This document shows positions 37,628 through 64,000 of a DNA stretch of 64,000 nucleotides, in pieces (position 1 is the first letter of the stretch; each line of letters opens with the position of its first letter). The notes under the pieces were generated by a model. That model saw nothing but the letters and a program-made list of their open reading frames with translations. It was not told where the DNA came from and did not search any database. The DNA comes from Giardia intestinalis (lineage: Eukaryota). A program made the translations under genes and the position numbers. The stretch is taken from NCBI GenBank assembly GCA_000002435.2, contig CM018793.1. One strand, given 5' to 3'.

Positions 37628-37787
37628 TATTTATGTGTTTTTGACAGAGGCTCCGTCCTAACAAATCCCTGCCAGCTATGGTGAAATGATACCCGCGCAG
37701 CGGCCGCCCATGGGACTACAACCCCAAGGACTACAACGCTGGCAGGCAACAGGGGCCCGCACGCAAAACGCAGAGTTCACTAGCGGC

Positions 37788-40700: not shown

Positions 40701-42671
40701 GAGCTCCTTGAGCTCTGCGATCTGGTTATCGCGCGCCTCGATCTCATCGGTCAGCGCCCTGATCTTCTCCTCGAGGGCGCGGATGGCCGTCTCGTCTGCG
40801 GGGGCGTCGCGCGACCTACCGCTGAGCTCCTTGACCTGCTGCTGGAGCTCCTCGATGCGCGCAAGGTACTCTGCAGCGTCTGCTCCCCGCGTGGCGTCTG
40901 CCTCCAGGGCGTCCACCCTTTCCTGGAGAGCCGCGCTGTTCTTCATCTCCTCCTGGATGCGGTCGCGGAGGAGCTCGATCTCGTCGTCGCGCTCGTCGAT
41001 GTCCTGCTTCGCGTTGGCGAGCTCGAACTGGAGGTCTGCGATCTGCTCGTTGAGCTCCTTGACCCTCTCGTCGTCGCCGCCCTGCGCGTCGGCGAGGAGC
41101 CTCTCCAGCCCTGCGATCTGCGCCTCGAGCTGGGCTACGCGTTTATCGCCCTCGGCAGACGACCTCTGGGCGCTCTCTGCGCGCATGACGAGGTCCTGGA
41201 GGCGGGCGATCTCCGAGTTCTTGGCGGCGATGATGGCGTCGAAGTCCGCCGCCTCGCCTCCCCTGGCCAGGGTCTCCTCGAGGCGGCTCTGGAGGGCCTC
41301 GAGCTCCCCGTCCTTGGCGAGGAGGGCCTGGCGGAGGCTCTCGACCTCCTCCTCGAGAATCTGCGTGGCGTACGCCTCGTCCTGGCTGGCGGCTGCCTGT
41401 TCCAGCTCGGCAATGCGTGCGTCGCGCTCATCGAGCATGGACCGGAGGCCTGCGAGTTCGTCCTCGAAGGCCCTGGTCTTCTCGACGATGGGCCGGAGCC
41501 CCGAGAGGTCGGACTCGCGCGCCTCCAGCTCCTCCCGGAGGGCGCTGATCTTGTTTTCGTAGTCTGCAAGAAGGGCCGCGTCTCCCGTGGGCGACGGGAC
41601 GGCGGTCAGGCGCTCGTTGAGGGCGCGGATGTCCCTCTCCTTCTCCGCGAGCTCGGACTGGAGCGCCCTGATCTTGTCCTTGAGGCCGTCGACGTCCTCG
41701 CCAGACCCGCCGGCGCTGAGCATTCCCTCCATGTCGGAGAGACGCTCCTTGAGGTCGCTGATGATGGCGTCCTTGTCGGCCGTCTCGGACTGGAGCCTGC
41801 TGATCTCGATGCGCAGCGTGGTGATGTTCTCCTCCATGTTCTTGACCTGGCCGTGCAGGGAAACGTTCTGGCCGATGACGATCGACGACTCGTCGTGCAG
41901 CGAGGCCAGCTTCAGCTCGAGCTGCATGATCTTGGACTCGAGCTCGTGCTCGAGCTGCGTCTTGGTCTGCGTGAGGGAGTCAGCCTGTCCGCCGGGGAAG
42001 CGGTGCGCGTCGATCAGAGAGAATGACAGGGAGAGGTCGAGGGCGGGGTTTCCGACCTGGGACGAGGAGAAGTTCATGAGCGAGGGGCGGGTGAACTCCG
42101 GAATCAGGTTCGCCTCATAGGACGCGAGGCACTGGACGATGTCGGTGTGCCCGTTCTCGGCCGCGAGCACGAACGCCGTCTTGTGGTCGTACGAGACGAT
42201 CTCCTTCTCGCGGACCACGAGGAGCTTCACCACGTCCGTGTGGCCGGCCGCCGCCGCGTACATCAGGGCGGTGCGCCCGCGCGCGTCTGTCTTGGCCTTG
42301 AGGTAGGGGAGCAGGTTGCTGACCGCCGCGGTCGACCCGTGCTCGGCGGCGAGCATGAGAGGCGTCATCTGGAAGTCGCCGTAGGTGGTGTTGACCTCAT
42401 AGGCGACGAGGCGCTTGCAGACGTCGCCCTTGTTGGCCTCGGCGGCGATCATGATGGCGGTCTTCCCCTCGCCGTTGACCATGCCGTTCTCGAAGAAGCC
42501 GAGGATCTTGACAAGCTCCACGTTCCCTTCGCGCGCGGCGATCATCAGGCCCGTCTCGCCGTCGCCGTTGACGGACTTGGCGTACTCTGCTGCGTGGTTG
42601 CGGATCAGCTCGACCTGGCCGGCCTGGATGGCCTCAAACCATTCCTCCACAGAAGACACCACTGCAGGCAT
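37788..42671 (-). CDS. Ankyrin-repeat plus giant coiled-coil protein; GASP-180-like axoneme-associated protein family (inference)
   Basis: N-terminal ~200 aa contain 5-6 ankyrin repeats, followed by ~1400 aa of continuous heptad coiled coil. 1627 aa is about 180 kDa. The gene is markedly GC3-rich (~65% GC versus ~48% in neighbours). ATG at 42671. Confidence 0.7.
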   Translation of the reverse strand: MPAVVSSVEEWFEAIQAGQVELIRNHAAEYAKSVNGDGETGLMIAAREGNVELVKILGFFENGMVNGEGKTAIMIAAEANKGDVCKRLVAYEVNTTYGDFQMTPLMLAAEHGSTAAVSNLLPYLKAKTDARGRTALMYAAAAGHTDVVKLLVVREKEIVSYDHKTAFVLAAENGHTDIVQCLASYEANLIPEFTRPSLMNFSSSQVGNPALDLSLSFSLIDAHRFPGGQADSLTQTKTQLEHELESKIMQLELKLASLHDESSIVIGQNVSLHGQVKNMEENITTLRIEISRLQSETADKDAIISDLKERLSDMEGMLSAGGSGEDVDGLKDKIRALQSELAEKERDIRALNERLTAVPSPTGDAALLADYENKISALREELEARESDLSGLRPIVEKTRAFEDELAGLRSMLDERDARIAELEQAAASQDEAYATQILEEEVESLRQALLAKDGELEALQSRLEETLARGGEAADFDAIIAAKNSEIARLQDLVMRAESAQRSSAEGDKRVAQLEAQIAGLERLLADAQGGDDERVKELNEQIADLQFELANAKQDIDERDDEIELLRDRIQEEMKNSAALQERVDALEADATRGADAAEYLARIEELQQQVKELSGRSRDAPADETAIRALEEKIRALTDEIEARDNQIAELKELVDGAPAQPVETDPAQLTALEEENGRLKDELQALNDALEALRKSGADEASGLRGQVAHLNKEVSDLKEALANARASGDASDVERLVELQEQLEDAQEQLLSLKDRYDCAVAEMEDMRRELEQKPVGSTVYTDEPGASSEDLDRLKEELDALREEVQVLNEELEVMHGQNREQKDELNRLNGALDAKESLIADLKAQLDSTVPQDDARIKILEDEIADLRGTVAARDDAIRGLEEKTARLAELEQLAADKGKEVADKEHSLRRLEDEVRQLNDALCELREKPLSVAPSDQSGAEYVDAQTEISDVDPEEQAKVSSILDFDDGLVQKVDELQALVNALTGENDHYKGEHARIMAEMDALKEDLRNGRLRSDSLEGDKERLMKQVRDLTDLVESLRKDLGAPQDQGEVAALRQEVADLRSRVDELIDAAKGKDETIEQLEKELAIARASAENTERLSELLAEVEGYKAKLGESKEMVDSLLAQLASKDAELAGATTGLRAVTDDDGAELAKARVASLENEVAELRGQLNAKLAEIDAVHKNLVDSDAEAARLREELGGLRVQLEAAQVPEDTERVRMLEDQLQDARKELAELRAALEAKEMETEGLRAELATADPELANKLEASEATVRELRESAEALQDKLHALSDSRAADGDLQKLVEQLEKDLSGAKELVAERDATIDELKQRLRDTEEYDDLKERIAELDDEIAVLNDGLKDKDAEIAELREQLEAQPTATTVYPESGEEVGDAAALREVQDENAALKDELEAKRSLIDELQDEIDGLKQQCSDLKDEMIKLDSANNDKITTLQCSLDESRKQIADLQEEVEVLKNTANDIDPAVVESLQEELRKLQEELDDRENTITELQGLLDDQEGKNAEVSAQIEALNRELEEARDANLHSANDERTMALEAEIASLQESLDKANEDLAQKTDECGKAISETGNLRKAVEYYKKLVDDIRAGIVVLDDNLSALDLQ

Positions 42672-48285: not shown

Positions 48286-48890
48286 CTGTCGCCGCAGCAG
48301 ATTTTCCCCGACGATTTTACTTTAAAATGGTACGGACTGCCTCTCTGTTGGCCGCTGGCCTCCCAGTTGCAGACTGAGAGCCAACACCGCGACCGGTATG
48401 CCTGACCTACTACCTAGTCAGTAGATACCCCTGTTCGGCAAGCAGAAGCTGTGGGGTTAGCCCTGGACAGGTCAGACTCGTTCTGTCCGTAAAGGCCCTC
48501 CGTGGCCGGCTCGTCACTTGTGGCGCCATGACTCAGACTCTGCACACGCTTATCGCACAGGGCATCCAACCCGTGCCTTCTGGGCGAGTAGTTAATGTCA
48601 AAGGCGATTATCGTGTCTTAGTGTGCCAGCGCATGACCGAGACTACCTTACAAAGTACAGTAGCGTACTGCCTAACGCTAGAAGCATGGGGCGACTTGTC
48701 CGAGAGCAGCCCATCCGTTATAGGGCCGCCCCTGTAATGGGTTCGCACAGGCCTCGGTCACCGACCACCCGAGATGTGATCTGCTCCTTGATGATTGTGT
48801 CATGTGCGAGCCTCTTTTGTATAATCCGAACACTACTTCCACTGATAACACGATCTGAGATTAAAAATTAATACTTTTAGACAGCTGTTG

Positions 48891-50927
48891 ATGCATGCGT
48901 TGGTGGTGCTCGTCGCTCTGGCCACCGCGCCGTCGCGTGGAGGGAAGATGAGCTGCCCCAAAAACCACTACCTGACCGGGAGCATGTGCGTTGAGTGCGC
49001 CACGGCGATAAAGTGGTGTCTGGAGTGCACCGGGGCAGGCGCGTGCACGAGGTGCGCTTCCGGGGCGTATCTCGAGGGAGGGTACTGCAAGCCGTGCGAC
49101 CCTACCTGTGAGCGCTGCACAGGCCCGGGGAAGTGCACGGCGTGCAGCGAGGCCCACTGCAGGGCACAGGACGGGACGTGCAAGAAGCCCAAGGACTTAT
49201 ATACAGGATGTAGCAAGTGCGTCCATGACACAGGAAAGTGCATGACCTGCGCAGAGGGGTACTTCCACTCGGGCGCGGGATCAACCCCCTGCACAAAGTG
49301 TGCCGATAACTGTCTATCCTGCAAGAGCCCCACTGAGTGCACGAGGGCTGCCTCAGGGTACTATGTTAACCCCTCGACGAAGAGTCCAGCTGCCTGTACC
49401 AGTGCTAACTGTGACACTTGCGCAGATGGCGGAGCATGCACTGTCTGCAAGCCAGGTTATAGGCTTTCTACGTCATCAACAACGACATCATCGGCAACAT
49501 GTGTAAGTTGTACTGGCAATTGCAGCACGTGCGATTCCAACAAATGCACCTTCTGCATGCCCGGCTATGCCCTCACTTCTGACAGTACCTGCCAGGCGTG
49601 TCAGCAAGGCTGCGCTATCTGCGCCGATGATGAGCACCAGTTTCCTGGCAAATGTCTCTCCACTGGCTGCGCACAAGGCTACTATTACCATTCGTACGCA
49701 AAGGTGTGTGCCAAGTGTCCAACCAATTGTGCCGACTGCTACTACGACGAGGTGCACAGCATTCCTGTTTGTACCCGGTGTACGGACTCGTCCCAACTCA
49801 CGGTAGGACCAAAGATATATGGCATTTGGTGCTCTGATCTACCGACCAAAAGTTGTAAGAGTAACGAGTTTTTAGAAAACGGCTTTTGCGTCCCCTGCTA
49901 CGGGGCCATTATGAACTGTATAGGATGCAGCGACCGCTTCCGCTGCACTGAATGCTTGCCTGGCTACTACTTGTACGACAACCTCTGTGTCCGGTGCGAC
50001 GACAACTGCCTTGCTTGTGAGAACACTGCGACAAACTGCACCAATTGCGATGATGGCTTTGTCCTGCAGAATGGCACATGCGTTAAAGTGGGCTTGGTGA
50101 TAGAGAACTGTCTCCACGCGGATAATACCACAGATCCAACCAAAGGCTGCAGCACGTGTCGGGGCGGCTTTTACGTAGCTGACGGTGCGTGCAAGAAGTG
50201 TGTGGATAACTGTCAGTTATGCAAGGGACCGGAGGTTTCGAACTGCATACTAGGATTCAATGGCTATCGGTATGATAGCTACAAGAATACGTTGGAAAAG
50301 TGTGAGGATCCCAACTGTGAGCTGTGCGCAGAAACAGCAAAGTATTGCGGCACTTGCAAACTAGGATTTTACATATCACCTGACGATCAGAAGTGTGCGA
50401 AAGGACAAGTAGAGAATTGCAAGGTCTATACATATGACGGCTCTGCATGCAGCGAGTGCCTAGCCGGCTATGGCATTTCAGTTGATGGAGATCGGTGCTC
50501 CCCGTGCTTGGAAGGCTGCAAGGGAGAGTGCACAGACACTACTTGTGAGTCTGGCGTGTGTGTGCAGGGATACTATTTCGCTGAAGGGGATACGTGTCTA
50601 ACGTGTCCGAGCGAATGTGCGTCCTGTATGGCAAACAGCAAGAAGCTGGTCTCTTGCGATCGGTGCACGTCTGGCCAGGTTTTCGCCATTAGCTCAGTCA
50701 TGGGTCTCTACTGCGGTAAGCTGGACTCTAACTTCTCCAGCAGGGGCGCAGGACTCATCTCTACGATTGTTATCTTGGGCCTCATCATCGTCGGTTTCAT
50801 CGTGGCTACTCCGTTCCTCGTCAAGCTTGCGAAGAAGCGGGGGGTCCGAGTTAGCAAATTACGCAGCATAAATTCCGGGTCAGAGAGCCACAACGAGTTC
50901 CTTCTAGAGGAGCCGGATCTTCTGTGA
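48891..50927 (+). CDS. High cysteine membrane protein (HCMP), type I membrane protein
   Basis: Signal peptide, about 12% Cys arranged as repeated CxxC/CxC units, one C-terminal TM helix (LISTIVILGLIIVGFIVATPFLV), and a short cytoplasmic tail that does not end in CRGKA. ATG at 48891; the track start is TTG. Confidence 0.8.
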   Translation: MHALVVLVALATAPSRGGKMSCPKNHYLTGSMCVECATAIKWCLECTGAGACTRCASGAYLEGGYCKPCDPTCERCTGPGKCTACSEAHCRAQDGTCKKPKDLYTGCSKCVHDTGKCMTCAEGYFHSGAGSTPCTKCADNCLSCKSPTECTRAASGYYVNPSTKSPAACTSANCDTCADGGACTVCKPGYRLSTSSTTTSSATCVSCTGNCSTCDSNKCTFCMPGYALTSDSTCQACQQGCAICADDEHQFPGKCLSTGCAQGYYYHSYAKVCAKCPTNCADCYYDEVHSIPVCTRCTDSSQLTVGPKIYGIWCSDLPTKSCKSNEFLENGFCVPCYGAIMNCIGCSDRFRCTECLPGYYLYDNLCVRCDDNCLACENTATNCTNCDDGFVLQNGTCVKVGLVIENCLHADNTTDPTKGCSTCRGGFYVADGACKKCVDNCQLCKGPEVSNCILGFNGYRYDSYKNTLEKCEDPNCELCAETAKYCGTCKLGFYISPDDQKCAKGQVENCKVYTYDGSACSECLAGYGISVDGDRCSPCLEGCKGECTDTTCESGVCVQGYYFAEGDTCLTCPSECASCMANSKKLVSCDRCTSGQVFAISSVMGLYCGKLDSNFSSRGAGLISTIVILGLIIVGFIVATPFLVKLAKKRGVRVSKLRSINSGSESHNEFLLEEPDLL

Positions 50928-53900
50928 CGGCGCGGATCAATGTCTTCTCCTGTCTGCCTTGCTTGTATGCGTACCCAGTTTCTATCGTGCTGGGGCAATA
51001 CAGCCCTTCTCCTAGTAAACAAGGCAGAAGTATGTATGCTGGTGTCACCACGGTCGTTGACTACCTAGGGGCCGGCGACAGCTGCGAGAGCAATGGGCAC
51101 AGGAGTAGCGCATTCCGGGGCGTGATTTATCTGTCTTGCCATCTGCCGTGGTACTGTACATGACTCCGAGGATGATACAGTGTTGATCGCTGAGGTGGTT
51201 TCCAGCAAATACGTCCTTAGTTAACTTCCTCGTATCGGGCGGCGCTTCGCATGCCTGGTTCCGACGTCCGGCGCCACCCAGCTCCGGGAGCAGGAGAAGG
51301 CGGGGAAGGAGGTCGGTAGCCCGACCCTCTCACCTGCAGCAGCCTCCGGATCCGCATGCCGATAGAAACGACTCGAAGCGGGATCCGGCAGACACTTGGC
51401 GGGATGATGGTACTGCAGGCGAAGAGGGCCCTCGCGCTCGCCGCCCCAGTCGATCTCCCTACTAAAGAGCAAGCGTGTGGCGGACTTCTAAGACGGTTGC
51501 CGCTATCACTGAACCCTCTCCCCAGCTGGGCTAGTCGTCAAATGGGAAGTGGCTCATGAACGCATTATCTCGCCTTTTGAGGCCCGCCTTGCCTCTATTG
51601 TATTGTCCATGGCGCCAGGAGTTATGGAAGACACGCCTGCACCTCCTGACTGAAGAGCTTTGCCGCGGGCAAGGCACCGAACGCCGCGTCCTGGGAAGCC
51701 TCCCGCCTCAGGCTCATTCAACTGGAGTCTCATACGCCAAATAAGGCATTTCATTTCCCTTTCCACACCTCCATAGCTTACAGGCTGTGTTACATCATGC
51801 TGCACCAGATGACGCCTACGCCAACATCCCCAGGACGCTGAGAGAGATCAGAAGGCCTTCCAAGTCCTCTGGAGGCGTTTAGATGCAACTCCTAGCTCTT
51901 GCTCTTGGGAGACCTCGATAGGGATCAGCAATCGACACGTAGACTGCGAGCTATGTAATCAAGACCTGGAACAGATGGCCTTCGTTATCGACAAGACAAG
52001 AACAGGTGATGGAGCTCCGTTCTCCCCGGATCCTGTGCTCCAGAGGAGGCAGGGCTTCCAGTCACTGACTGCCCCGATAGGAGTCATGCGTCTGCTGATG
52101 CTTTGTGAGGACCGCATGGACTCCGACTCGTACCTATACACTGTGGATGCTGCTGGTCTCTCGAGGGAGATGCTCCGACACCATAGCAAGAACAGGAGCC
52201 TTAGGTGCACATGTGAGAGCTTGACACGGGACATAGAGCTAATTCAGGCCTCATTTAAGAACCTGGGGGCGTTTCACACGCTGGAGGATACCAGGATTGG
52301 GGGAGTCCCCATCATCTGTTGCCCCAAATGCTTCAGCACCAGAATGGCGAGTAGGAGACATCTGGCTAAAACGAAACACTCTGTGCTGATGTGGCACCAG
52401 ATGGTAGTCACTCGAGCATATGCTCGTTCTGCACTGAACCCACCGAGGTCAGAGAGCCGTCCAGGTGCACTGCAACACAAACATCGAGTGTAGAGCGTAA
52501 CTGCGTGAAGGGATGGGAATGAAGAGGAGAGGGACATCCTTTTCAGCACCCACCCCATAGCCATGCTCAGGGATGATAAAGACCCTTCTTATAGAACCCC
52601 AGTCAAAAGAGGCGAGAGCACCTCGTGAAGCAAATGAGGTGTGCTTTGTCAGACTGGTGGGTCGTTGATATATGAGCAACAGCCACCAGAAGGCCTCTAA
52701 CAGGGATCAGATTGTCAAGTGCGTCGAAGACGCCTTGATGAAGAACAACTGCCCTCGGGTCACGGGCTTCTCTCCTACAAGAACATTCACAACCTGGACT
52801 CTCTAGAGGGGATAAAGGTAACACGTGAGCTGCACTCTAATACCCCAAAGTGTTACCGTGGCTGGACGACAGGAGATTGTGCTGGTCACGTGGTGAGAAT
52901 CTTCATGCGAACTTCCAGCCAGATCAGACAATAGTGAGAAATAGCTAGTTTTCTCGTAGCGTGCCTCCTCTCTGAACAGGACTGGAGGTGCCTGGGATGC
53001 TCTTCTAGAGTCTCGGTATCGAAGGGTCCATGCCAAGTAGCAGACCCTGTACTGCATGGCATGAGAGCTTTTAGGACGTGTAAATACCCGTGTGGCCGTA
53101 GCGACGCGTTTCCATCCGCAGGTACCAGGGCACGTCGGTGGACAGCGTACACAGTGACTCAGGCACTCTACGTGTGGTCATGTCCTACAGTTCCTGTAGT
53201 GGGCTATGGACAGCCTGATAACCAGTGTTCTATAGCAGCGCGACGTGGGATGGTGCGCCCAGCAGCACACCACATCTATGGTCTCAACGAGGCTTTACAG
53301 GGTGCAGTAGGGCATCCGAGCCAACTGAGCATTGGACTGGGCCCTGGGTGGGAGGTAAGGGCTCCTGTGCACGACTGGGTTGCTCCCAGATAGAATAGGG
53401 TATACAGTGAGCTAGATGAATGCGATGCTGTAAGGTATCCACAGCCGCATAGATTCATCCGGTGGTGCCGCACTGGATGTTGGGAGGCACACTGCCGACA
53501 GGTCAGGGAAGCTTAAAGAGTGATAGTGCCATTTTGCTATTATTATGTAGTACTTCGGGGCATGTAGCTAGGGAGGTATCCCCTGATGGTTGGGAAAAGG
53601 GCAGAGCTAAGTGAATAATGACCATGCCCATCATGAACAGCTCTAGATGCTACCCGATCACTTTCTAGAAGTGCATATGTCTCGGATAGGTGGGAGCTAC
53701 ATTCAGGGCCATGTGCGGATAGAAGGCAGCCCAGCGACTGACGCTTTGTACAACCTCCTCATCCGCTGCCTGAGCAGCCAGAAGCCAGCTTCGATATGCA
53801 GACGGAAGCTGCGAAGAGTAAACTCATCGTGGGGTCGATTGTCTGACACTAAAAAATCCGGAACGATGACGGCAGCCATTGTCTCCCTAAGATGATGTAT

Positions 53901-56900
53901 TATGCGCGGTATCAGCTTTGGCCCTCTAGATGGGTAGTTTGGGGCATTCTGCACTAGCCTTGACTTCTGAGACGCTAAGACCTGTGAATAGCACAGAACG
54001 AGGCATGGTATGTATAGACGGTGCGTTGTCTTCATGAATGTGCACTACAGCCTCCAAATGCACGCAGCTAGACCAGAATGGACGGATCAGCTAGCTTACA
54101 CAGGCGACCTGCCCACCACCATGTTTGCTGCGATGAGGGGCTGCATCTACCCAACAGACTGAGCAGAGATTACAGCAGCTTCTCTACTGATGCATGCATG
54201 GCCATGCGCCGCCCTAGTAGGTGGTGTAGATACTATAGTATCTACCCTGCCTGTTGTTAATAAAGAATATCAGTTAGTCGCACTGGACACTCTTCTAGGA
54301 AGGCATACAGTCTCTATGGTTGCAATTTCACCAGTTGTAATGACAACTGAACACTAGGAAAGGTGCCATAGAACGATCTGCTGCCTTTCAAGGTGAGACA
54401 TAAATCCACACATAAGCCAAAAGCAGAACTCTATACATCGATTGTTATGATCTTAGTGCGATGACCGGTTTGAGCTATGATACACTCCTCACTTATCTAT
54501 GTACTCGTTTGGATCCTCGCTGCTAGTGTTGGACAGGACTGCGAGGGGGCCTGTCTCTGGTTGCGTTGACCTTATGGTATCTAGTCCTTGGTGACACACC
54601 TCAGCGGATGAGGATGTTATTCGGGTACTCAAAAGACTATCCGTGCATAACGGTTTCTGGAGAGCCGGTCCGCATGGAGAATATAGGGTGACCAGCGAAT
54701 CAGTGAAGTAAGACTGGCGTCAGAGAGGCCAGCTACTAGCCCGGATTGCAGCAGAGACGCCTGTAGCGCCTCTCTGGTCTCCGAGTGGTAAAGATCGCGG
54801 GGTCTACAGATAAGTTGAAAGCTGCTTTTTGATTTTATATATTCCTAACAGCGTAATATTTATCAGCGGCCTGCCTCGTCTGAAGTTGAAGAAGTTTACC
54901 TTCTCTCCGCATATTGGCGAGGATCTATTGTAGAGGCATGCTGTGCAGGCTGGTACCAGTCGGCGTGGTTGCTGTCCACAGATTTCTCACCTGCGTCTTC
55001 TCATGGCAGATGATCGCTAGCAGCGCTCTCAGCTCACGTGGCTAAGTCTACGGTGCATCTCCACTTCGGCCAAGGATTGTATACGTATTATATAGTCTGG
55101 ATTGCTCATCAGCCAGGATAGTGTGGTCCACTCCTGTTCTCTGCTTGCCTATCTCGTGCAACCATTTATTAATGACCTTTCCAGATCAATGGGTACTTCC
55201 ATCAGTTCTGTAAAGGCATACGTCACGCAGACGGCCACTACAAGCCAGACTCCTGTCTACCAAGGAAAAGGGTCAATAGATTTATCATCTGGGCATCCGT
55301 TATGTCCCTTATACAGATCTGGCAGGTCTTGGGCTCCTCAGCGTTTCTTCGTAAGTCTCTGGCTGAAGCCCGTATGCATATCGTTACTGACAAGCGCCTT
55401 AGCTTCATCTGACCACTTAGGGCATTAGATCCTTTGCCCTGCACAGTGGGTATGCTCAGCGTGGGAGGTACACAACCAGCATCAGCTTTCTCGGCTCATT
55501 GTCTGAGTAATACTGTCATTGCTTCTCAATTTAACTAGCAACTCAACTAATGGTCTCAAAAGCAGATAACAACTCACCAGCAGGTAGTCAGCAGTGACCG
55601 TGACGCGTACTTTCGCTAAGGCGCAGACTTCTAAGCAGGAGCATGAGGTAGGCCTCTGCCATTCTGTGGTCCTGTTAATTCCTCGGATAGTAAAGATTGG
55701 AACAGCTCAGGCTAGCATTGGATGCATCCGGGTCTCTATCTATCTCCGTCGTCTGGAGTGTGTTTGACTTCATAAACTGAAAGGAGCTGTACCGTGCTCG
55801 TGCCTGCAAGCCTCAGCTAGGCAGAGCTATATCTCAGTTGTTGCGTGGGGGTAGCCACACGCCCCGCAGAGCCTGCAAGGAACATTGTGGCCCAATAGAG
55901 CCTTTTACCTATCGAATGCAAGCTGTGACCTCATAGGCGCAGGCTTTCTTATAGTAACCAGTCAGCTACAGAGTTCGTCCACTCGTATAAACCCAACGGA
56001 TGGAGGGCGATATCAGTCTCGTCGATCGTCTACAACGCACAGCAGTCGAGTCCTACAGGTGGACAGAGGTCATCCAGCCCGCATCAATAAACATCGATAG
56101 GAAGCCTTCACAACAATGAATGAGTGAGTACAGTAGCCATTTTTCTATTGAAGATTCTCCAACCACTGAGGTCCAGGACAGCCTCCTACAGGATTCTTGG
56201 CAGGATCGTATCCGATGCATGTTTGTGGCACTCCCGCTCAAGGTGTGTGTTGCTAGACTTTCACTTCCTACACTGGCCTGTGAACATTGAGCTCTGGGCT
56301 CTAGCGGGGCCATGCTGGAGATCACAAGGATATGGTGTCTTCGGAGACTATTCGGCTTCCGTAGCCACACAATAAGGATCTACTTCTCGCAGTAGCATCA
56401 CAGAGAGGTGTATAGAACCATACCACGCCCTCTACCAGGTGACATGATGCATGAATCAAGAGGTAGGACGCTTGCACCGATCGGCATATCTACCATGATC
56501 AGACACAGATTGGCCCGAAAGTAGCAGCTAAATGTTGTTCGACTCCCTTATCAGTGGATGGGCACCCAACTACCCTGGTACCCACACGAGGCCACGCTGA
56601 GTATGGGCCTGGTCACTGGCTATCAAACCAGCACAGTCCCTCTGGATCTCGTCTCTCATGAAGACAGCCTAACACAGAGAGCTCTGTGTCACTCACATCA
56701 ACAGACCAAGGTACCGCAGGCCTGGGTGCTTCTGGTACGATAGAGCGGTAGCATCAGAGTAATTCAAGGGGTGATGGGAGTCCTCTCCATCAGCTCAGGA
56801 GACAGCACGGTCTGGGCAGTGCTTCCCCTTGACTAGACACGGGAGGGCTGACCCGTCTCTGAGTTCTACTTGCCACTCTGTCATGCAATGAAGAACCCTA

Positions 56901-57137
56901 ATGGTACTTAGTACAGGGGGCCAGTAGTAACGCCATGCATCCACCAGATCAGAGTGCCCCATGAGCCTGTCTCTGTTGATCCACACCTTCTACGAACTTT
57001 AGTGACTGATGCAATCTTCTCTCGAGATCCTCCGAGGATTTGTCTCTGAGTGTAACTCCCCCACGACAGCTAAGGGTCACGGGCATAACCGAAGGACGAG
57101 AGCGATCCAGGGGGAGAGCACCGGCGCATGGGGTCCG

Positions 57138-59720
57138 CAGGGGCCGGTTCCCAGGGATGCAAGGACGGCAGATCGCTTGCTGTCTAAGCAGTAATTAGAT
57201 CCATGTTTTGTCATGACGGCAAGGTTGGCACCGGATCAAGTTCTTTGGATCTTTAACACAATATCTGACAAATGCATTGTTCTATTGGCTGAACATAGGA
57301 TTGCTGACAAAATTTTGTTTCCGCATTGGCATAACCCGAACAGAACTTCAATGTTGTTGGTAGTATTCTATCTTGTGTTGAGTGCTCTCGCGGCAGCATG
57401 CAAGCAAGCACAAAATTGTGTAGAGGATAAGTGCGAAATGATCGGAGACACCGAAATTTGCACTCAGTGCACAGCAGGAAAAGTCCCAATTGATGGAGTA
57501 TGTACAGCAGTTGGTAGTGCCGCTGGTAAATGTACAAAGGCTGAAGGACAAGCAGTAGATGACACTGATAAAACATGTGGAAAATGCGTAGACGCATACT
57601 TCATGTACAAAGGCGGATGTTATCTGGCCGGTGCAGCTGGACCGGGTACTGGTACTAAAATGTGCAAGCAGGCTGCTGGTGGCAAGTGTACGCAAGCTGC
57701 TGATGCGAAGAACTACTTCATTCCACCAGCAAATACAGACGATACTCATGATTCTGTCGTTTGGTGCGGTGATGAAATAGGCGTAACACTTAGTAGTACT
57801 CAGTATAAGGGTGTTGCTAAGTGCCTAGTATGTGATGCTCCCGGTGGCGCTGGTGCTGCAACGTGCACAACCTGTGAAGACGGGTACTTTGGTGCTACTT
57901 GTGAAAAATGCCATGAAAGTTGTAGGACATGTGAAGCTGCAGAAGAGAATAAGTGCAAGTCGTGTACAGATGGCTACTTCCTTGGAGCAACCAATGGAGC
58001 CGCAGGTAAGTGCCTTAAATGTAACTCTAAAACAGAGGAAGGCTGGCACGGAGTTGACAACTGTGCTAAGTGCACGTCATCTAATACGCAAAACACTCCT
58101 GCGACATGCACTGAATGCGTTGCAAATTTCTATCTAAAACCAGCTGCGGATGCGACTCCTTCTAGTTGCGTCACAGAAACGGGGTGCGGTGACGGATACT
58201 TCCCAACTATTGTTGATGAGGTCAAGAAATGTATCGCTTGCAGTGCAGCTACAAATGGTGGCATAGATGACTGCAAAAAGTGTTCTCTCAAAACAACGTC
58301 TGCGAAGGCAGGAGTAGAGATCGTATGCACTGAATGTAATACTAAATGGCTCAGTCCTCTAAGAGACGCATGTTTGGATAGCTGTCCTCCTGGAACACAT
58401 GCTGATTCTGGCAATATTTGTCCTTTATGTCATAGTACATGTGCAGAATGTGATGGTAATGCAGGAGCCAACTTTTGTACAGTTTGTTATCCAGGGTTTG
58501 TATTAAAGCGCGGTGAAACTGGCAACATGGGCATGTGCGTTCCCGAGTGCACTGGAGAGTACGCAGAGAACTGCGAAGCTGACCAATGCACGGCCGTTAT
58601 AGGTAGCTCCAAGTATTGCAGCAGGTGTAAGGTTGGATTTGCCCCAGTGGATGGCGTCTGTGTATCGACGGCTTCAAGAGCAGTAACTGGATGCACAGCA
58701 GGAAACGATGGGACATGTACGGCCTGCACAGGTACATATTTCTTACAATCTGGTGGGTGCTATCAGTCAACAACGTATCCTGGTAATACCCTCTGCTCTA
58801 TCGCTGCTAGTGGAAAGTGCACAACATGCGCCAATGGGCAAACAGCAGATAGCAATTTGGGTTCTTGCCCAGCATGTCCAGCTGGCTGCTCAAAGTGCGC
58901 AACTAGTGGTAGTCCCAAAGCATGCTCAGAGTGTTTCCCTGGATACTATAAATCTGGGGATAGCTGCGCAAGATGCGATACTAATAACAGCCAAATTACC
59001 GGTGTCGCTAATTGCGTAAGCTGTGCTCCTCCATCTAATGGTCAAGGATCTGTCATCTGCTACATAACGCGACAAGAGACCGACGATGGCACTGGCGACA
59101 ACACAGGTGGAAGCACGAACAAGAGCGGCCTCTCCACGGGTGCCATCGCGGGGATCTCCGTGGCTGTGATTGTTGTTGTAGGTGGCCTCGTCGGCTTCCT
59201 CTGCTGGTGGTTTATCTGCCGTGGAAAGGCGTAGACTTAGGTAGTAAACACGTCACTGTATATGGCTTATTACGCTATTCTGCCGGGGCTATCTGAGGAT
59301 CGCCCAGAGATCGTGTGAGTGAGTCCGCTCCTTTCTGACTAGTCCGGAGACGAGGGTTGGTCATGAATAACATGACGGAGAGTCCTCTCCAGTGATATAT
59401 CCAGAGCCTGGTGCGCTCCTCTGCCATTTCGCGGGGGTGTACTCAATCCGAGTGTGTGCGTCACTCACCCTGGGATTCAGCTTACCTATCCATTTGCATC
59501 GTCCACCAGTGGCGCCTCTCGTTGGTCTTCCTTCGTGGTGGGTGAAGCTCCGGTCGCCGTCCTTTTTTAGATGCCCCGTCTGTCAGGGGCTGCCACCGGG
59601 CTCTCCGCTGGCTGGGCCCTCGGTGTCCGGGCAGCTGTGGCTCGAGTCAGCGCTCCCACAGTCCAGTCACCTGTGTCTCAGTGGGCCGGCTGGTGGGTGG
59701 GGCGGGGGTATGGGGCGGTG
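57138..59720. repeat. Left arm of a >=2583-bp perfect inverted repeat (carries VSP copy 1)
   Basis: Reverse complement of 61418..64000. The arm may extend further left because the right arm is cut by the window end. Confidence 0.85.
57351..59234 (+). CDS. vsp: Variant-specific surface protein (VSP), copy 1
   Basis: Signal peptide MLLVVFYLVLSALAA, many CxxC motifs, a GGCY-type motif, a C-terminal TM and the invariant CRGKA terminus. The upstream in-frame ATG at 57213 adds 46 non-signal residues and is probably 5' leader. Confidence 0.85.
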   Translation: MLLVVFYLVLSALAAACKQAQNCVEDKCEMIGDTEICTQCTAGKVPIDGVCTAVGSAAGKCTKAEGQAVDDTDKTCGKCVDAYFMYKGGCYLAGAAGPGTGTKMCKQAAGGKCTQAADAKNYFIPPANTDDTHDSVVWCGDEIGVTLSSTQYKGVAKCLVCDAPGGAGAATCTTCEDGYFGATCEKCHESCRTCEAAEENKCKSCTDGYFLGATNGAAGKCLKCNSKTEEGWHGVDNCAKCTSSNTQNTPATCTECVANFYLKPAADATPSSCVTETGCGDGYFPTIVDEVKKCIACSAATNGGIDDCKKCSLKTTSAKAGVEIVCTECNTKWLSPLRDACLDSCPPGTHADSGNICPLCHSTCAECDGNAGANFCTVCYPGFVLKRGETGNMGMCVPECTGEYAENCEADQCTAVIGSSKYCSRCKVGFAPVDGVCVSTASRAVTGCTAGNDGTCTACTGTYFLQSGGCYQSTTYPGNTLCSIAASGKCTTCANGQTADSNLGSCPACPAGCSKCATSGSPKACSECFPGYYKSGDSCARCDTNNSQITGVANCVSCAPPSNGQGSVICYITRQETDDGTGDNTGGSTNKSGLSTGAIAGISVAVIVVVGGLVGFLCWWFICRGKA

Positions 59721-61417
59721 AGGCTGGAGGGGACTGGTGGGACCAGGTGGTGGGTGTTCGTATGCGCCCCTGACCTTTTAGTGGACTGGGGTGATCCCCG
59801 CTCTGTTTGCCAAGGTGGTTGTGTCTGATCTTCAACCATCGTTGCACTCCCGAGACAGAGGCACCGACGATCGTGTCGTGTCCCCCTGAGTGAGCGCCTC
59901 CCTTGGCCCCTGCATGCCTCGGGCAGTACTGCTCTGTCTGGCTGGTGCATGAGGGCTGAGGCAGACCATCGCAGCCTCTCCTGTTGCTCGCTGATGCTCT
60001 GTGACGGGTCTGCTGGGCCCCTGGCATGCCCTGTCCGGTGCCTCGACGATAGTTCACCTCGGGCCAGCAGGGGTGTGGATGACCTTGTGAATGGGATGGG
60101 GTTCTCTCATGCCTCTAGTGTGATGACTCAAAAGACTAACACGGTGGGGCATCGGTGACTGCACTGTCCCCGTGGTCAGCTGTGCTGCTCCTGGTGGGTC
60201 CTTGTTGTGGAGCGCTGTGTATCATCCATAGGCAGAGGTGAGCCTCCTTGGTCTCAGGATGCTCTACCATCAGAGAGGAGCACGCTGGGGGTCACCCAAC
60301 ATCACCTGCTGTGCCCTCGGGAGTTCCCGGTGTGGTCTACTAACCTTAACACCTCTCGTGGCTCTGATGACCCCTCGGGGAGAGCCGGGGTGTCCTATGC
60401 CAGGGAGGCGTGCACCTTCCTGCATGAGCTGGGCCATCCACTGCACTGCCCCCAAGGAGGTCTGCTATGAGAGGCAGTGGGATGATTGACAGCCCCTCAG
60501 AGTGGGTGGAGGGCGCTCGTGGTCGTCTCTGTGACCGGGCATCACTCTGATAGTCGGCTCTGTGCCTGCGTGGTGCTCAGAGGTCACCTGTCTGCCTCAT
60601 TGCCTGCTGGACAGCCGGCCTCTTGTGTCATCCGAAGGCCTCCTCACTCCTCTGGCTGCTGCCCCCTCGGGTCATCGATGGAGACCAGCGGAGTCTTCGG
60701 TGGGTCTGGTGCCTGTCTGGGTGTCATGGGGGCTGGCAGCTATCAGGGCTCTGCCACTGCTCACCTGCCTGGAGTGTGCCTCCCTTGGGTCTGCTGTGCT
60801 GTAGTGTTTGAGTCCTCTGGTTTCCTATCAGGCCCTGGTTGTGAGGGTGACCCCACCTGGCCCTCTGATGTCCCTGTGGATGAGCATAGCAGCTGTCTGG
60901 CTGGGGATCTCTGGTGCCCGTGGCTGTTGCTGCCTCTCGGGTGCTCGGGTGGTTGCCTGGCACTCTCGTATGGGACACAGTCAGCGTGTCCCGAGCAGAC
61001 CCTAGTCCTCTCTGGGTCATGCACAGTCTGTCCGTGTGTGGATGGTCCTCCTGCACTCAGGTCCATCTGTGCATACTATCACTCAGCCTCGAGAGCAGGC
61101 CAGTGCCAGTTACTAGGGCTGCTGTCAGAGGGAGTCGTCTGCCACTACCATCGCTCGAGCAGCCCTGCAGATCAGGCTGGTTGCTGTGCACCCTCATGGC
61201 AGGGCTGCCTGACTCCCTTGGTCATCCTCTCTGTCCCGGTGTGCACGGCTCCTGAGGGTTGCCTGGGTGGAGGCACTCACAGACCACGAGCACACAGAGG
61301 GATGAGTCACAGGTAGACAGCCCCCAGTCACCACAGCTGCGATCACCCCAGTTCACCGGACCCAGGGGCACATACGAGCACCACCAACCTCAGCCCCCAC
61401 CAGAGCCCCTCCAGTCC
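59721..61417. other. 1.7-kb spacer between the IR arms: a degenerate continuation of the palindrome with a strand-compositional switch
   Basis: The left half is A-poor (G/T/C-rich) on the plus strand and the right half is T-poor (C/A-rich). The spacer edges are still ~80% identical to each other in reverse complement. Spurious long ORFs arise here because stop codons are rare. Confidence 0.6.
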
Positions 61418-64000
61418 CACCGCCCCATACCCCCGCCCCACCCACCAGCCGGCCCACTGAGACACAGGTGACTGGACTGTGGGAGCGCTGACTCGAGCCA
61501 CAGCTGCCCGGACACCGAGGGCCCAGCCAGCGGAGAGCCCGGTGGCAGCCCCTGACAGACGGGGCATCTAAAAAAGGACGGCGACCGGAGCTTCACCCAC
61601 CACGAAGGAAGACCAACGAGAGGCGCCACTGGTGGACGATGCAAATGGATAGGTAAGCTGAATCCCAGGGTGAGTGACGCACACACTCGGATTGAGTACA
61701 CCCCCGCGAAATGGCAGAGGAGCGCACCAGGCTCTGGATATATCACTGGAGAGGACTCTCCGTCATGTTATTCATGACCAACCCTCGTCTCCGGACTAGT
61801 CAGAAAGGAGCGGACTCACTCACACGATCTCTGGGCGATCCTCAGATAGCCCCGGCAGAATAGCGTAATAAGCCATATACAGTGACGTGTTTACTACCTA
61901 AGTCTACGCCTTTCCACGGCAGATAAACCACCAGCAGAGGAAGCCGACGAGGCCACCTACAACAACAATCACAGCCACGGAGATCCCCGCGATGGCACCC
62001 GTGGAGAGGCCGCTCTTGTTCGTGCTTCCACCTGTGTTGTCGCCAGTGCCATCGTCGGTCTCTTGTCGCGTTATGTAGCAGATGACAGATCCTTGACCAT
62101 TAGATGGAGGAGCACAGCTTACGCAATTAGCGACACCGGTAATTTGGCTGTTATTAGTATCGCATCTTGCGCAGCTATCCCCAGATTTATAGTATCCAGG
62201 GAAACACTCTGAGCATGCTTTGGGACTACCACTAGTTGCGCACTTTGAGCAGCCAGCTGGACATGCTGGGCAAGAACCCAAATTGCTATCTGCTGTTTGC
62301 CCATTGGCGCATGTTGTGCACTTTCCACTAGCAGCGATAGAGCAGAGGGTATTACCAGGATACGTTGTTGACTGATAGCACCCACCAGATTGTAAGAAAT
62401 ATGTACCTGTGCAGGCCGTACATGTCCCATCGTTTCCTGCTGTGCATCCAGTTACTGCTCTTGAAGCCGTCGATACACAGACGCCATCCACTGGGGCAAA
62501 TCCAACCTTACACCTGCTGCAATACTTGGAGCTACCTATAACGGCCGTGCATTGGTCAGCTTCGCAGTTCTCTGCGTACTCTCCAGTGCACTCGGGAACG
62601 CACATGCCCATGTTGCCAGTTTCACCGCGCTTTAATACAAACCCTGGATAACAAACTGTACAAAAGTTGGCTCCTGCATTACCATCACATTCTGCACATG
62701 TACTATGACATAAAGGACAAATATTGCCAGAATCAGCATGTGTTCCAGGAGGACAGCTATCCAAACATGCGTCTCTTAGAGGACTGAGCCATTTAGTATT
62801 ACATTCAGTGCATACGATCTCTACTCCTGCCTTCGCAGACGTTGTTTTGAGAGAACACTTTTTGCAGTCATCTATGCCACCATTTGTAGCTGCACTGCAA
62901 GCGATACATTTCTTGACCTCATCAACAATAGTTGGGAAGTATCCGTCACCGCACCCCGTTTCTGTGACGCAACTAGAAGGAGTCGCATCCGCAGCTGGTT
63001 TTAGATAGAAATTTGCAACGCATTCAGTGCATGTCGCAGGAGTGTTTTGCGTATTAGATGACGTGCACTTAGCACAGTTGTCAACTCCGTGCCAGCCTTC
63101 CTCTGTTTTAGAGTTACATTTAAGGCACTTACCTGCGGCTCCATTGGTTGCTCCAAGGAAGTAGCCATCTGTACACGACTTGCACTTATTCTCTTCTGCA
63201 GCTTCACATGTCCTACAACTTTCATGGCATTTTTCACAAGTAGCACCAAAGTACCCGTCTTCACAGGTTGTGCACGTTGCAGCACCAGCGCCACCGGGAG
63301 CATCACATACTAGGCACTTAGCAACACCCTTATACTGAGTACTACTAAGTGTTACGCCTATTTCATCACCGCACCAAACGACAGAATCATGAGTATCGTC
63401 TGTATTTGCTGGTGGAATGAAGTAGTTCTTCGCATCAGCAGCTTGCGTACACTTGCCACCAGCAGCCTGCTTGCACATTTTAGTACCAGTACCCGGTCCA
63501 GCTGCACCGGCCAGATAACATCCGCCTTTGTACATGAAGTATGCGTCTACGCATTTTCCACATGTTTTATCAGTGTCATCTACTGCTTGTCCTTCAGCCT
63601 TTGTACATTTACCAGCGGCACTACCAACTGCTGTACATACTCCATCAATTGGGACTTTTCCTGCTGTGCACTGAGTGCAAATTTCGGTGTCTCCGATCAT
63701 TTCGCACTTATCCTCTACACAATTTTGTGCTTGCTTGCATGCTGCCGCGAGAGCACTCAACACAAGATAGAATACTACCAACAACATTGAAGTTCTGTTC
63801 GGGTTATGCCAATGCGGAAACAAAATTTTGTCAGCAATCCTATGTTCAGCCAATAGAACAATGCATTTGTCAGATATTGTGTTAAAGATCCAAAGAACTT
63901 GATCCGGTGCCAACCTTGCCGTCATGACAAAACATGGATCTAATTACTGCTTAGACAGCAAGCGATCTGCCGTCCTTGCATCCCTGGGAACCGGCCCCTG
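61418..64000. repeat. Right arm of the inverted repeat (carries VSP copy 2); truncated by the window end
   Basis: Reverse complement of 57138..59720. Identity ends at gtatggggcggtg / caccgccccatac. Confidence 0.85.
61904..63787 (-). CDS. vsp: Variant-specific surface protein (VSP), copy 2, identical inverted duplicate
   Basis: Exact reverse complement of copy 1, giving an identical 673-aa ORF translation. Tail-to-tail relative to copy 1. Confidence 0.85.
   Translation of the reverse strand: MLLVVFYLVLSALAAACKQAQNCVEDKCEMIGDTEICTQCTAGKVPIDGVCTAVGSAAGKCTKAEGQAVDDTDKTCGKCVDAYFMYKGGCYLAGAAGPGTGTKMCKQAAGGKCTQAADAKNYFIPPANTDDTHDSVVWCGDEIGVTLSSTQYKGVAKCLVCDAPGGAGAATCTTCEDGYFGATCEKCHESCRTCEAAEENKCKSCTDGYFLGATNGAAGKCLKCNSKTEEGWHGVDNCAKCTSSNTQNTPATCTECVANFYLKPAADATPSSCVTETGCGDGYFPTIVDEVKKCIACSAATNGGIDDCKKCSLKTTSAKAGVEIVCTECNTKWLSPLRDACLDSCPPGTHADSGNICPLCHSTCAECDGNAGANFCTVCYPGFVLKRGETGNMGMCVPECTGEYAENCEADQCTAVIGSSKYCSRCKVGFAPVDGVCVSTASRAVTGCTAGNDGTCTACTGTYFLQSGGCYQSTTYPGNTLCSIAASGKCTTCANGQTADSNLGSCPACPAGCSKCATSGSPKACSECFPGYYKSGDSCARCDTNNSQITGVANCVSCAPPSNGQGSVICYITRQETDDGTGDNTGGSTNKSGLSTGAIAGISVAVIVVVGGLVGFLCWWFICRGKA

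Follow-up and report, generated by a model that had tools for sequence, protein, structure and literature searches.

Earlier papers left two questions about the identical VSP genes of Giardia, namely why they are confined to inverted pairs and how their sequences stay identical; one of these papers describes such pairs as "cryptic" (Adam 2010, PMC2996952). One of these pairs lies at the end of the 64,000-nt stretch of Giardia intestinalis contig CM018793.1 that we analyzed (hereafter, the window), where two identical genes converge from the arms of a palindrome. Our preferred reading, to which we assign a probability of roughly 0.8, is that this is a known pair with an old multi-copy cassette, that its arms are homogenized by gene conversion, and that its genes serve an ordinary VSP function rather than a dedicated regulatory device.

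The locus is a catalogued VSP gene pair

The palindrome is the duplicated VSP pair vsp53.2/53.1 (GL50803_00137714 / GL50803_0011470, "VSP S1") on chromosome 5 of isolate WB of Giardia duodenalis (intestinalis/lamblia), and is already known. The 627-aa product of the left gene, one member of this pair, is 100% identical to the proteins deposited at NCBI as "VSP with INR" under the consecutive accessions KAE8305191.1 and KAE8305192.1, and a longer, 673-aa ORF equals XP_001708121.1 / AAN52096.1 ("VSP S1"). For vsp53.1, Adam 2010 (PMC2996952) lists 673 aa, 69.2 kDa, 73 Cys, 24 CXXC, and the Inr CAATGTT (Additional file 1), and for the pair gives an identity that extends 486 nt beyond the stop codon and a distance of 2670 nt between the ORFs (Table 5). 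Xu 2020 (PMC7000408, Table 2), which is based on the PacBio reference, gives genes 137714 and 11470 on chr5 in convergent orientation (-> <-), with 627 aa, 2669 bp between them and no intervening gene. Every measurable feature of the window locus agrees with vsp53.1/53.2 (GL50803_11470 / GL50803_137714), without any difference. What we add to the published description is a diverged boundary zone of ∼100 nt, two mismatches near the boundary, and a comparison with other copies of the spacer.

The arrangement also conforms to that of its class. Identical inverted VSP pairs have 2 to 4 kb of intervening DNA and a divergence point 139 to 729 nt from the ORF (Adam 2010; Xu 2020). Here, the identical ORFs are convergent, their stop codons are separated by 2669 nt, matching the 2.67 kb of the first-pass annotation of this DNA, and identity ends at +486. 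That annotation had also seen a likeness to a reported tail-to-tail duplicated vsp locus, which proves apt. The vsp1267 locus (Mowatt et al. 1991, as cited in PMC2996952) is of the same kind and likewise has inverted identical ORFs, 2 to 4 kb between them, and sharp divergence of the flanks, and the exact pair is in PMC2996952, PMC7000408, and the preprint of Rodriguez-Walker et al. (bioRxiv 10.1101/2022.03.07.483299), where it is named. The other 12 to 13 tail-to-tail identical pairs of WB share the layout and differ in VSP coding sequence. Five tail-to-tail pairs of Giardia muris also have this layout, but their spacers hold NEK, ARP, or zinc-finger remnants (PMC7641422), whereas the vsp53 spacer holds none.

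One possible artefact is a single VSP gene that was falsely duplicated or folded back, since inverted repeats with identical arms are difficult to assemble and contigs that terminate at them are noted in Adam 2010 (PMC2996952). However, two assemblies, one Sanger and the other PacBio (GL2.1), independently contain the pair, and homologous spacers with inverted arms are present in independent assemblies. A fold-back would create neither a unique 1.5-kb core, nor two mismatches near the boundary, nor a diverged boundary zone, all of which are seen here. An assembly artefact is thus extremely improbable.

Each arm carries a complete VSP gene

The first-pass annotation had described two identical 673-aa VSP genes with CRGKA ends. 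Their identity, convergent orientation, and CRGKA termini are borne out by the ORFs (57213–59234 on the plus strand and 61904–63925 on the minus strand; 69.2 kDa and 73 Cys for the 673-aa model), but their length is not. The biological start is the internal ATG at position 57351, which is embedded in a VSP initiator motif of the PyAATGTT type (CAATGTT) and gives a protein of 627 rather than 673 aa. The in-frame extension upstream of this ATG, which underlies the older gene model, is probably untranslated.

The protein has the features expected of a VSP. It begins with MLLVVFYLVLSALAAA, a putative signal peptide, has a cysteine-rich ectodomain (72–73 Cys, 10.8%; 24 CXXC), matches PF03302 in Pfam with E = 1.8e-85, and ends in AIAGISVAVIVVVGGLVGFLCWWFICRGKA, wherein a conserved transmembrane segment is followed by CRGKA and the stop codon. 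Both copies are also consistent with the short 3′ UTR of VSP genes, with a poly(A) signal of the AGTRAA type (AGTAAA) located 9 nt after the stop codon. The AGTAAA of the left gene is the sole such motif on the plus strand across the 2.67-kb interval.

Table 1. Coordinates of features of the vsp53 palindrome within the window.
Feature	Position	Strand	Remarks
Left arm, strictly perfect part, 2583 nt	57138–59720	+	0 differences vs right arm
Right arm, strictly perfect part, 2583 nt	61418–64000	-	0 differences vs left arm; runs off window
In-frame upstream extension behind the 673-aa model (XP_001708121.1 / AAN52096.1 "VSP S1")	57213–57350	+	mirror 63788–63925 (-)
VSP initiator (Inr) CAATGTT around the start codon	57349–57355	+	mirror 63783–63789 (-)
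VSP gene, 627 aa: putative signal peptide MLLVVFYLVLSALAAA, 24 CXXC, transmembrane segment, CRGKA tail	57351–59234	+	100% identical to NCBI "VSP with INR"; Pfam PF03302
3′ flank within left arm, 486 nt	59235–59720	+	mirror 61418–61903; homologous to 3′ flanks of other VSP cassettes, 75–83%
Poly(A) signal AGTAAA, 9 nt past stop	59243–59248	+	mirror 61890–61895 (-); motif class from PMC3610916
Left transitional zone	59721–59822		2 mismatches in initial 12 nt, then ∼69% identity with indels vs right partner
Spacer core, unique, non-palindromic, non-coding	59823–61315		GC ∼61%, A 14% on + strand
Right transitional zone	61316–61417		partner of left transitional zone
Second VSP gene, 627 aa, identical, convergent	61904–63787	-	ORF comparison; Xu 2020 Table 2 (PMC7000408)

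Perfect identity steps down to a diverged boundary zone

The inverted repeat was first scored as 2595 nt per arm (57138–59732 / 61406–64000) with 100% complementarity. This value reflects rounding, as a base-by-base comparison reveals two mismatches near the inner end (59721/61417 and 59723/61415). Strict identity spans 2583 nt per arm, consistent with the ∼2.58 kb of the first-pass annotation, and stops 486 nt beyond the VSP stop codon. Because the right arm stops at the window edge, position 57138 is merely the mirror of position 64000, and the true outer boundary is out of view. The palindrome is the sole inverted repeat of at least 30 nt reported within the 64-kb window, and therefore chance is excluded as its origin.

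Just inside the perfect arms, the two sides continue to resemble each other over ∼90 nt, where 66 of 95 aligned columns match (69%) and the alignment score is 29, compared with −6 ± 4.5 in shuffled sequences. Past this zone the score does not rise, and no palindromic similarity was detected in the central core of ∼1.5 kb. The interval between the genes consists of two inverted 486-nt 3′ flanks, two diverged boundary zones of ∼100 nt, and a 1.5-kb non-coding core. The earlier statement that identity "decays gradually" into the spacer is overstated; it steps from 100% to ∼70% over ∼100 nt and then meets the core.

The spacer belongs to a multi-copy cassette family

The pair belongs to a multi-copy cassette family, each cassette being composed of a VSP tail, a 3′ flank, and a spacer. 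At least seven distinct, diverged copies were found, whose spacers are 80 to 92% identical to each other (8 to 20% divergence), although the comparison copies come from metagenome assemblies and may include orthologues from other assemblages, not just paralogues. The right-hand ∼1 kb of the core (60443–61404), to which the all-copy comparison was confined, is 88 to 92% identical to at least six other copies on metagenomic Giardia contigs; the left part of the core was compared only with one contig, L001. Among the cassette copies, conservation of the core (88–92%) exceeds that of the neighboring 3′ flanks (75–83%) and far exceeds that of the VSP coding sequence (∼64%).

L001 is an independent metagenome contig in which the spacer recurs with both inverted flanks, although it could be chimeric at 2951–3064. 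Its partner VSP gene is lost and its arm remnants are 84 to 87% identical, leaving a "solo" state with one VSP gene and a 369-nt inverted remnant. The unique flank of L001 shares 97.65% identity with a contig that we take to be WB-like, as one of its encoded proteins exactly matches a WB protein; its spacer identity of 84% is therefore paralogous, not orthologous. Another copy, L002, was rejected as evidence for inversion (flip-flop) of the spacer. The identity of its flank, at only 67%, marks it as a paralogue, and its orientation is ambiguous because the outer limit of the window palindrome is unseen.

Six-frame translations of the spacer yielded no Pfam family at E ≤ 1 and no transposase or reverse transcriptase remnant, and the translated homologues are ORFs of sister spacers only; a retrotransposon, a VSP pseudogene, and any other pseudogene were accordingly rejected. 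A 276-aa ORF (60486–61316) is a composition artefact of the A-poor plus strand of this strongly strand-asymmetric core, and its reading frames differ between copies. In the copy alignment, spacer substitutions show no periodicity by codon position, and most indels (24 of 35) are 1 nt long, whereas in the VSP tail, which served as a control, 17 of 21 substitutions fall at one codon position. Protein coding was rejected. A known or structured RNA was also discarded, since searches of the spacer gave no Rfam match at E ≤ 1 and no tRNA, and alifold analysis in 34 windows, the best of which reached z = −3.9 and contained just a single double-sided compensatory pair, was unconvincing in both z-scores and covariation. 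A scan of JGI metagenomes with a 20-mer conserved in the family returned two chance matches and no extended homology.

The conservation of the core might nevertheless indicate a functional element rather than junk, such as an organizer of recombination or conversion by which identical VSP pairs arise and are maintained, or a regulatory RNA's loop or promoter with a role in VSP switching. We consider such a role quite unlikely.

The entire 2.67-kb interval could instead be a foldback-type mobile element that inserted 3′ of VSP genes and nucleated outward growth of the palindrome. Terminal repeats and dispersed copies are indeed present, in that the family is multi-copy (seven copies) with inverted ends of ∼500 nt and a conserved core. 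The solo state of L001 fits as well, and the preprint 10.1101/2022.03.07.483299 describes relics of transposable elements in the vicinity of VSP pairs. However, each copy with a visible flank adjoins a VSP tail, so that none of these is independent of VSP genes, the six frames hold no transposase or reverse transcriptase remnant, and L001 may be a chimera. A foldback transposon was rejected when no target-site duplication was found at the repeat ends of L001, and the mobile-element origin in general appears very doubtful.

An old inverted repeat with identical arms

The boundary zones provide a means of dating the repeat relative to the family. Left zones are 79% identical to each other across copies and right zones 74 to 89%, whereas left and right zones are only 61 to 73% identical. 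The left-type and right-type zones are thus each conserved across copies, and therefore the inverted repeat predates the cassette family. The arms nevertheless have 0 differences in 2583 nt, compared with 8 to 20% divergence among the cassette copies and an identity of only 84 to 87% between the arm remnants of L001, where the partner gene is lost. The identity of the arms is thus well above what is expected from the age of the repeat. This combination of shared boundary zones and identical arms supports the proposal of the first-pass annotation, made from sequence, that an old palindrome is kept identical in a manner fitting gene conversion. The arms are probably held identical by copying between them. 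Recurrent intrachromosomal conversion from arm to arm would have this effect, with an inner tract limit near 59720/61418. A lone recent re-copying event ending at 59720 would give the same pattern.

A young, one-off inverted duplication would have identical arms merely from recency, with no ongoing homogenization. The absence of differences over 2583 nt followed by a sharp step is what such an event would leave, and Adam 2010 (PMC2996952) reports "abrupt divergence" and favors recent duplication and transposition. Against this stand the ∼90 nt of significant, 30%-diverged inverted similarity just inside the perfect arms and the left and right forms of the boundary zone that are common to diverged cassette copies, which indicate that the repeat is old. 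The spacers of separate copies are also 8 to 20% apart, and identical pairs are present in G. muris too. We judge a recent duplication to be unlikely.

Arm-to-arm gene conversion, as preferred here, has a precedent. The ampliconic palindromes of the human Y chromosome are large palindromes maintained by conversion between their arms. They share with the vsp53 palindrome near-perfect arms, a unique spacer, genes within the arms, and an identity far above the expectation from age. The vsp53 palindrome is, however, about a thousand times smaller with a single gene per arm, and the case for conversion draws on paralogues instead of orthologous palindromes in sister species.

Transcription of the paired genes

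The first-pass annotation had proposed that convergent transcription of the two genes would yield complementary VSP RNA as a substrate for RNAi. The sequence of the locus does not support this proposal. Identical genes that converge produce the same sense RNA from either side, and complementary RNA requires 2.67 kb of read-through past the AGTAAA that lies 9 nt beyond each stop codon.

Long inverted repeats that act as sources of siRNA include the hairpin-RNA genes of Drosophila and the inverted repeats of trypanosomes. The vsp53 locus shares with them a long inverted repeat and a loop-sized spacer, but each of its arms constitutes an entire gene, start and poly(A) signal included. Were read-through to occur, an RNA of sense-spacer-antisense form could be processed by Dicer as an RNAi trigger. 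The 2.6-kb perfect inverted repeat, if transcribed through, would be ideal dsRNA, no other poly(A)-type motif occurs on the plus strand of the spacer, and strand-specific RNA-seq has reported abundant VSP antisense transcripts. The reported antisense RNA concerns VSPs generally, though, and not pairs specifically, and we found no link in the literature between VSP pairs and small RNAs, nor evidence of transcription through this spacer. Moreover, mass spectrometry has identified the VSP-53.1 protein (PMC5070761, PMC3044749), and therefore the paired arrangement does not enforce silencing; the paired VSP1267 is likewise seen at the protein level, with monoclonal antibody mAb 5C1. Given also the same-sense mRNAs and their canonical poly(A) signals, we hold a trigger of this kind to be very improbable.

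The two copies are complete and independently equipped, each having an Inr start and an AGTAAA signal. In the reading favored here, they would have ordinary VSP function and together act as a two-copy antigen gene that is expressed or silenced like other VSPs, and the palindrome would be no dedicated regulatory device but both a by-product of recombination and a substrate for it.

Implications

The vsp53 pair has stood in published tables since 2010, with long-read confirmation in 2020, and its finding here adds nothing in itself to the Giardia literature. The comparison with other copies suggests an ancient inverted-repeat cassette that has an unusually conserved non-coding core. The age of the cassette and the conservation of its core make it possible to test for gene conversion as well as for any function that the spacer may have.

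The window contains a catalogued pair of identical VSP genes

A repeat search of the region returned one inverted repeat, and no other of at least 30 nt was reported across the whole 64-kb window. Base-by-base comparison of its arms (2595 nt each) revealed two mismatches, 59721/61417 and 59723/61415, corresponding to an identity of 99.92% that the repeat search had rounded to 100%. The strictly perfect portion is 2583 nt per arm, in agreement with the approximately 2.58 kb put forward by the first-pass annotation. The window edge cuts the right arm, which makes position 57138 merely the mirror of 64000 and leaves the outer end of the palindrome out of view. The identical, convergent, CRGKA-ended reading frames that had been placed 2.67 kb apart are likewise present, with 2669 nt from stop to stop.

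Locations of features in the window and in related contigs.
Feature	Location	Strand	Basis or property
ORF copy 1, 673 aa, CRGKA end	57213-59234	+	ORF search
ORF copy 2, 673 aa, CRGKA end	61904-63925	-	ORF search
Inverted-repeat arms	57138-59732 / 61406-64000		repeat search
Strictly perfect arms	57138-59720 / 61418-64000		base-by-base comparison
Mirrored 3' flank	486 nt inward of each stop	both sides	perfect identity
Near-boundary stretch	next 12 nt inward	both sides	2 mismatches
Boundary zone	next ~90 nt inward	both sides	66/95 aligned columns (69%), indels
Core, 1.5 kb	about 59823-61315		no self-complementarity
Core homologue	L001:1020-2513		sequence comparison
Core homologue	L002:479-1610		sequence comparison
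Cys-rich membrane protein, partial PF03302 match	48888-50927	+	Pfam
Ankyrin + coiled-coil protein, 1627 aa	37788-42671	-	window ORF

The ORF matches Pfam family PF03302 (Giardia VSP; E = 1.8e-85) and encodes 73 Cys, 24 CXXC motifs, and a canonical transmembrane segment with its CRGKA tail. Position 57351 is an internal ATG that carries the VSP initiator motif CAATGTT and begins a typical signal peptide, MLLVVFYLVLSALAAA. Given these two features, the real start is probably this internal ATG rather than the first, and the product from there is 627 aa. This product and the Giardia duodenalis entry 'VSP with INR' at NCBI agree at 100% identity; the entry has two consecutive accession numbers, KAE8305191.1 and KAE8305192.1, both from a contig of 4,018,654 nt. 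The 673-aa form is XP_001708121.1 (also AAN52096.1, 'variant-specific surface protein S1'), and XP_001708122.1, an old partial model of 524 aa, covers its C-terminal portion.

Indeed, the locus has been described more than once. Among the 14 identical VSP gene pairs in inverted orientation reported by Adam et al. 2010 (PMC2996952), vsp53.1 (GL50803_11470) is listed in Additional file 1 as member 'a' of a tail-to-tail inverted pair on chromosome 5, with the Inr CAATGTT, 673 aa, 69.2 kDa, 73 Cys, and 24 CXXC. The window ORF reproduces every one of these figures. Member 'b', vsp53.2 (GL50803_137714), is 5'-incomplete in that study, where Table 5 gives pair 53 a 3' divergence point at stop + 486 nt and an ORF spacing of 2670 nt. 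Perfect identity in the window ends at 59720, which is also stop + 486 and ties the locus to that table. Xu et al. 2020 (PMC7000408), who present the chromosome-scale WB reference from PacBio data, place 137714 and 11470 on chromosome 5 in their Table 2 as -> <-, with 627 aa, 2669 bp, and no gene between. A 2022 preprint (10.1101/2022.03.07.483299) names 20 duplicated pairs, 13 tail-to-tail and 7 head-to-head, and this pair is one of them. The pair is therefore real, yet already known, and the first-pass annotation, which likened it to a reported tail-to-tail vsp locus, had its identity and class right. The concern that the palindrome might be an assembly artefact is largely answered by its presence in two independent assemblies. 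Moreover, a fold-back artefact would not create the unique core, the near-boundary mismatches, or the diverged boundary zone.

Between the upstream Cys-rich membrane protein gene and the left VSP lie approximately 6 kb (50928-57137) without an ORF longer than 172 aa, in agreement with a published remark on gene-poor VSP surroundings. Because the upstream protein carries a transmembrane segment followed by a long cytoplasmic tail instead of CRGKA, its sequence identifies it as an HCMP/CRMP-type product rather than a VSP. Farther upstream, the GC-rich periodic codon usage of the ankyrin gene accounts for 32 repeat hits, grouped as two degenerate 'repeat families' of 46-48 nt, and for several long antisense ORFs that are spurious, such as 37686-39623 (+) and 39663-42026 (+).

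Organization of the interval between the stop codons

Identity had been described as decaying gradually into the spacer. Diverged similarity does exist just inward of the perfect arms, where the left-right alignment of the boundary zone scores 29 versus -6 +/- 4.5 (maximum 7) in 500 shuffles. However, the score is flat beyond 90 nt, and the gradual decay was overstated: identity drops in one step to the level of an old, diverged repeat, beyond which no similarity is left. GC content in the core is approximately 61%, and a strong strand asymmetry, with 14% A against 24% T on the + strand, accounts for long spurious + strand ORFs. No Pfam match was obtained from its six-frame translation, no Rfam match at E <= 1, and no tRNA. 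The core gave no support for a structured RNA, as just 1 of 34 alignment windows reached z = -3.9 and that window held a single compensatory pair.

The sole 7-nt A/T runs in the interval (TTTTTTA at 59563-59569 and TAAAAAA at 61569-61575) lie approximately 330 nt past each stop and, read as A-rich strands, face back into the adjoining VSP. Given the AT-rich cryptic promoters of this organism, they are conceivable candidates for antisense start sites.

The first-pass annotation also proposed that the convergent genes yield complementary sense and antisense RNA, a substrate for RNAi-mediated VSP silencing. This is not borne out, because convergent identical genes make mRNAs of the same sense; a sense-loop-antisense hairpin would need 2.67 kb of read-through into the partner. 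The + strand of the spacer does lack any further poly(A)-type motif beyond the first signal, but a canonical AGTAAA lies directly past the stop (9 nt) in both gene copies. Published strand-specific data give antisense RNA for VSPs generally rather than for pairs in particular, we found no paper tying pairs to small RNAs, and two mass-spectrometry studies detected VSP-53.1 protein. The silencing proposal is thus unsupported here, although it keeps a low probability.

The spacer belongs to a repeated non-coding family

A search of a protein collection with the translated longest spacer ORF matched unnamed ORFs only, which derive from six Giardia-derived metagenome contigs in five ENA samples (L001, L002, L008, L009, L010, and L011). 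These contigs are mutually 80-92% identical and thus are distinct copies, giving a family of at least seven with the window. Their visible flanks are VSP tails ending in CRGKA. The right-hand ~1 kb of the core (60443-61404) is 88-92% identical among copies, and the whole core is about 79-96% identical between the window and L001 in 100-nt windows. The core is better conserved than the adjoining 3' flanks (75-83% versus the window) and VSP coding sequence (about 64% over the alignable part). Between the interval and L001, substitutions lack a three-base period and most indels (24 of 35) are single-base, whereas 17 of 21 substitutions in the adjoining VSP tail, used as a control, fall on one codon position. 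This pattern indicates that the spacer family is non-coding.

Contig L001 carries a 'solo' cassette (L001:1-6072) with one VSP tail and a full spacer homologue, the partner VSP being missing; all that is left of the inverted arm is a 369-nt remnant, 84-87% identical to the left arm. The contig may represent either a pair that has decayed or a chimera of the metagenome assembly (candidate break 2951-3064). Over 2085 nt, its unique right flank shares 97.65% identity with Logan contig L003, taken as WB-like since it encodes WB protein GL50803_117393 exactly, which places the L001 organism close to assemblage A. Because its spacer is just 84% identical to that of the window, this spacer appears to be a paralogous cassette rather than a distant orthologue. 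Directly after the arm remnant come a gene resembling alpha-tubulin acetyltransferase (PF05301), which is homologous to GL50803_117393, and another Cys-rich gene. The WB protein GL50803_117393 itself has three identical entries in the old proteome.

We also considered a foldback-type mobile element, expected to combine long inverted ends with a non-coding core and to occur in many copies. The solo contig agrees with this model, but no target-site duplication was seen at the L001 repeat ends, and each copy with a visible flank adjoins a VSP tail.

The 2.4 kb located 5' of the left VSP (54750-57144) match L002:3998-6457, upstream of a different VSP, at 67% identity in inverted orientation; thus, the paralogous unit extends well past the gene. 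This segment has no ORF longer than 110 aa and may be part of the palindrome arm.

Age and homogenization of the arms

Across copies, the ~90-nt boundary zones are 79% identical left to left and 74-89% right to right, compared with 61-73% left to right. Since each side matches the same side of other copies, the inverted repeat predates their divergence (8-20%), despite which the window arms have no differences in 2583 nt. Adam et al. 2010 (PMC2996952) proposed recent duplication as the source of identical arms. Our reading differs, because boundary zones common to the copies make the repeat older than a recent duplication would allow. We favor an old cassette in which gene conversion between the arms would repeatedly homogenize them, the inner limit of the converted tract lying near 59720/61418; were the partner VSP lost, the arms would then diverge, as perhaps in L001. 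Gene conversion had been suggested earlier together with old age, and the boundary-zone comparison strengthens both, with conversion the simplest plausible reading from copies in metagenomes of uncertain lineage. One recent round of re-copying would leave an identical pattern. As in Giardia WB, identical VSP pairs occur in both head-to-head and tail-to-tail arrangements in G. muris (PMC7641422), which fits a recurrent or ancient process.

The spacer family is only partly new, because the preprint (10.1101/2022.03.07.483299) had noted that intergenic sequences of some pairs resemble one another. ORF, Pfam, Rfam, and covariation analyses offer no explanation for the conservation of the core. The residual point of interest is therefore the unusually conserved non-coding core of these tail-to-tail VSP cassettes.
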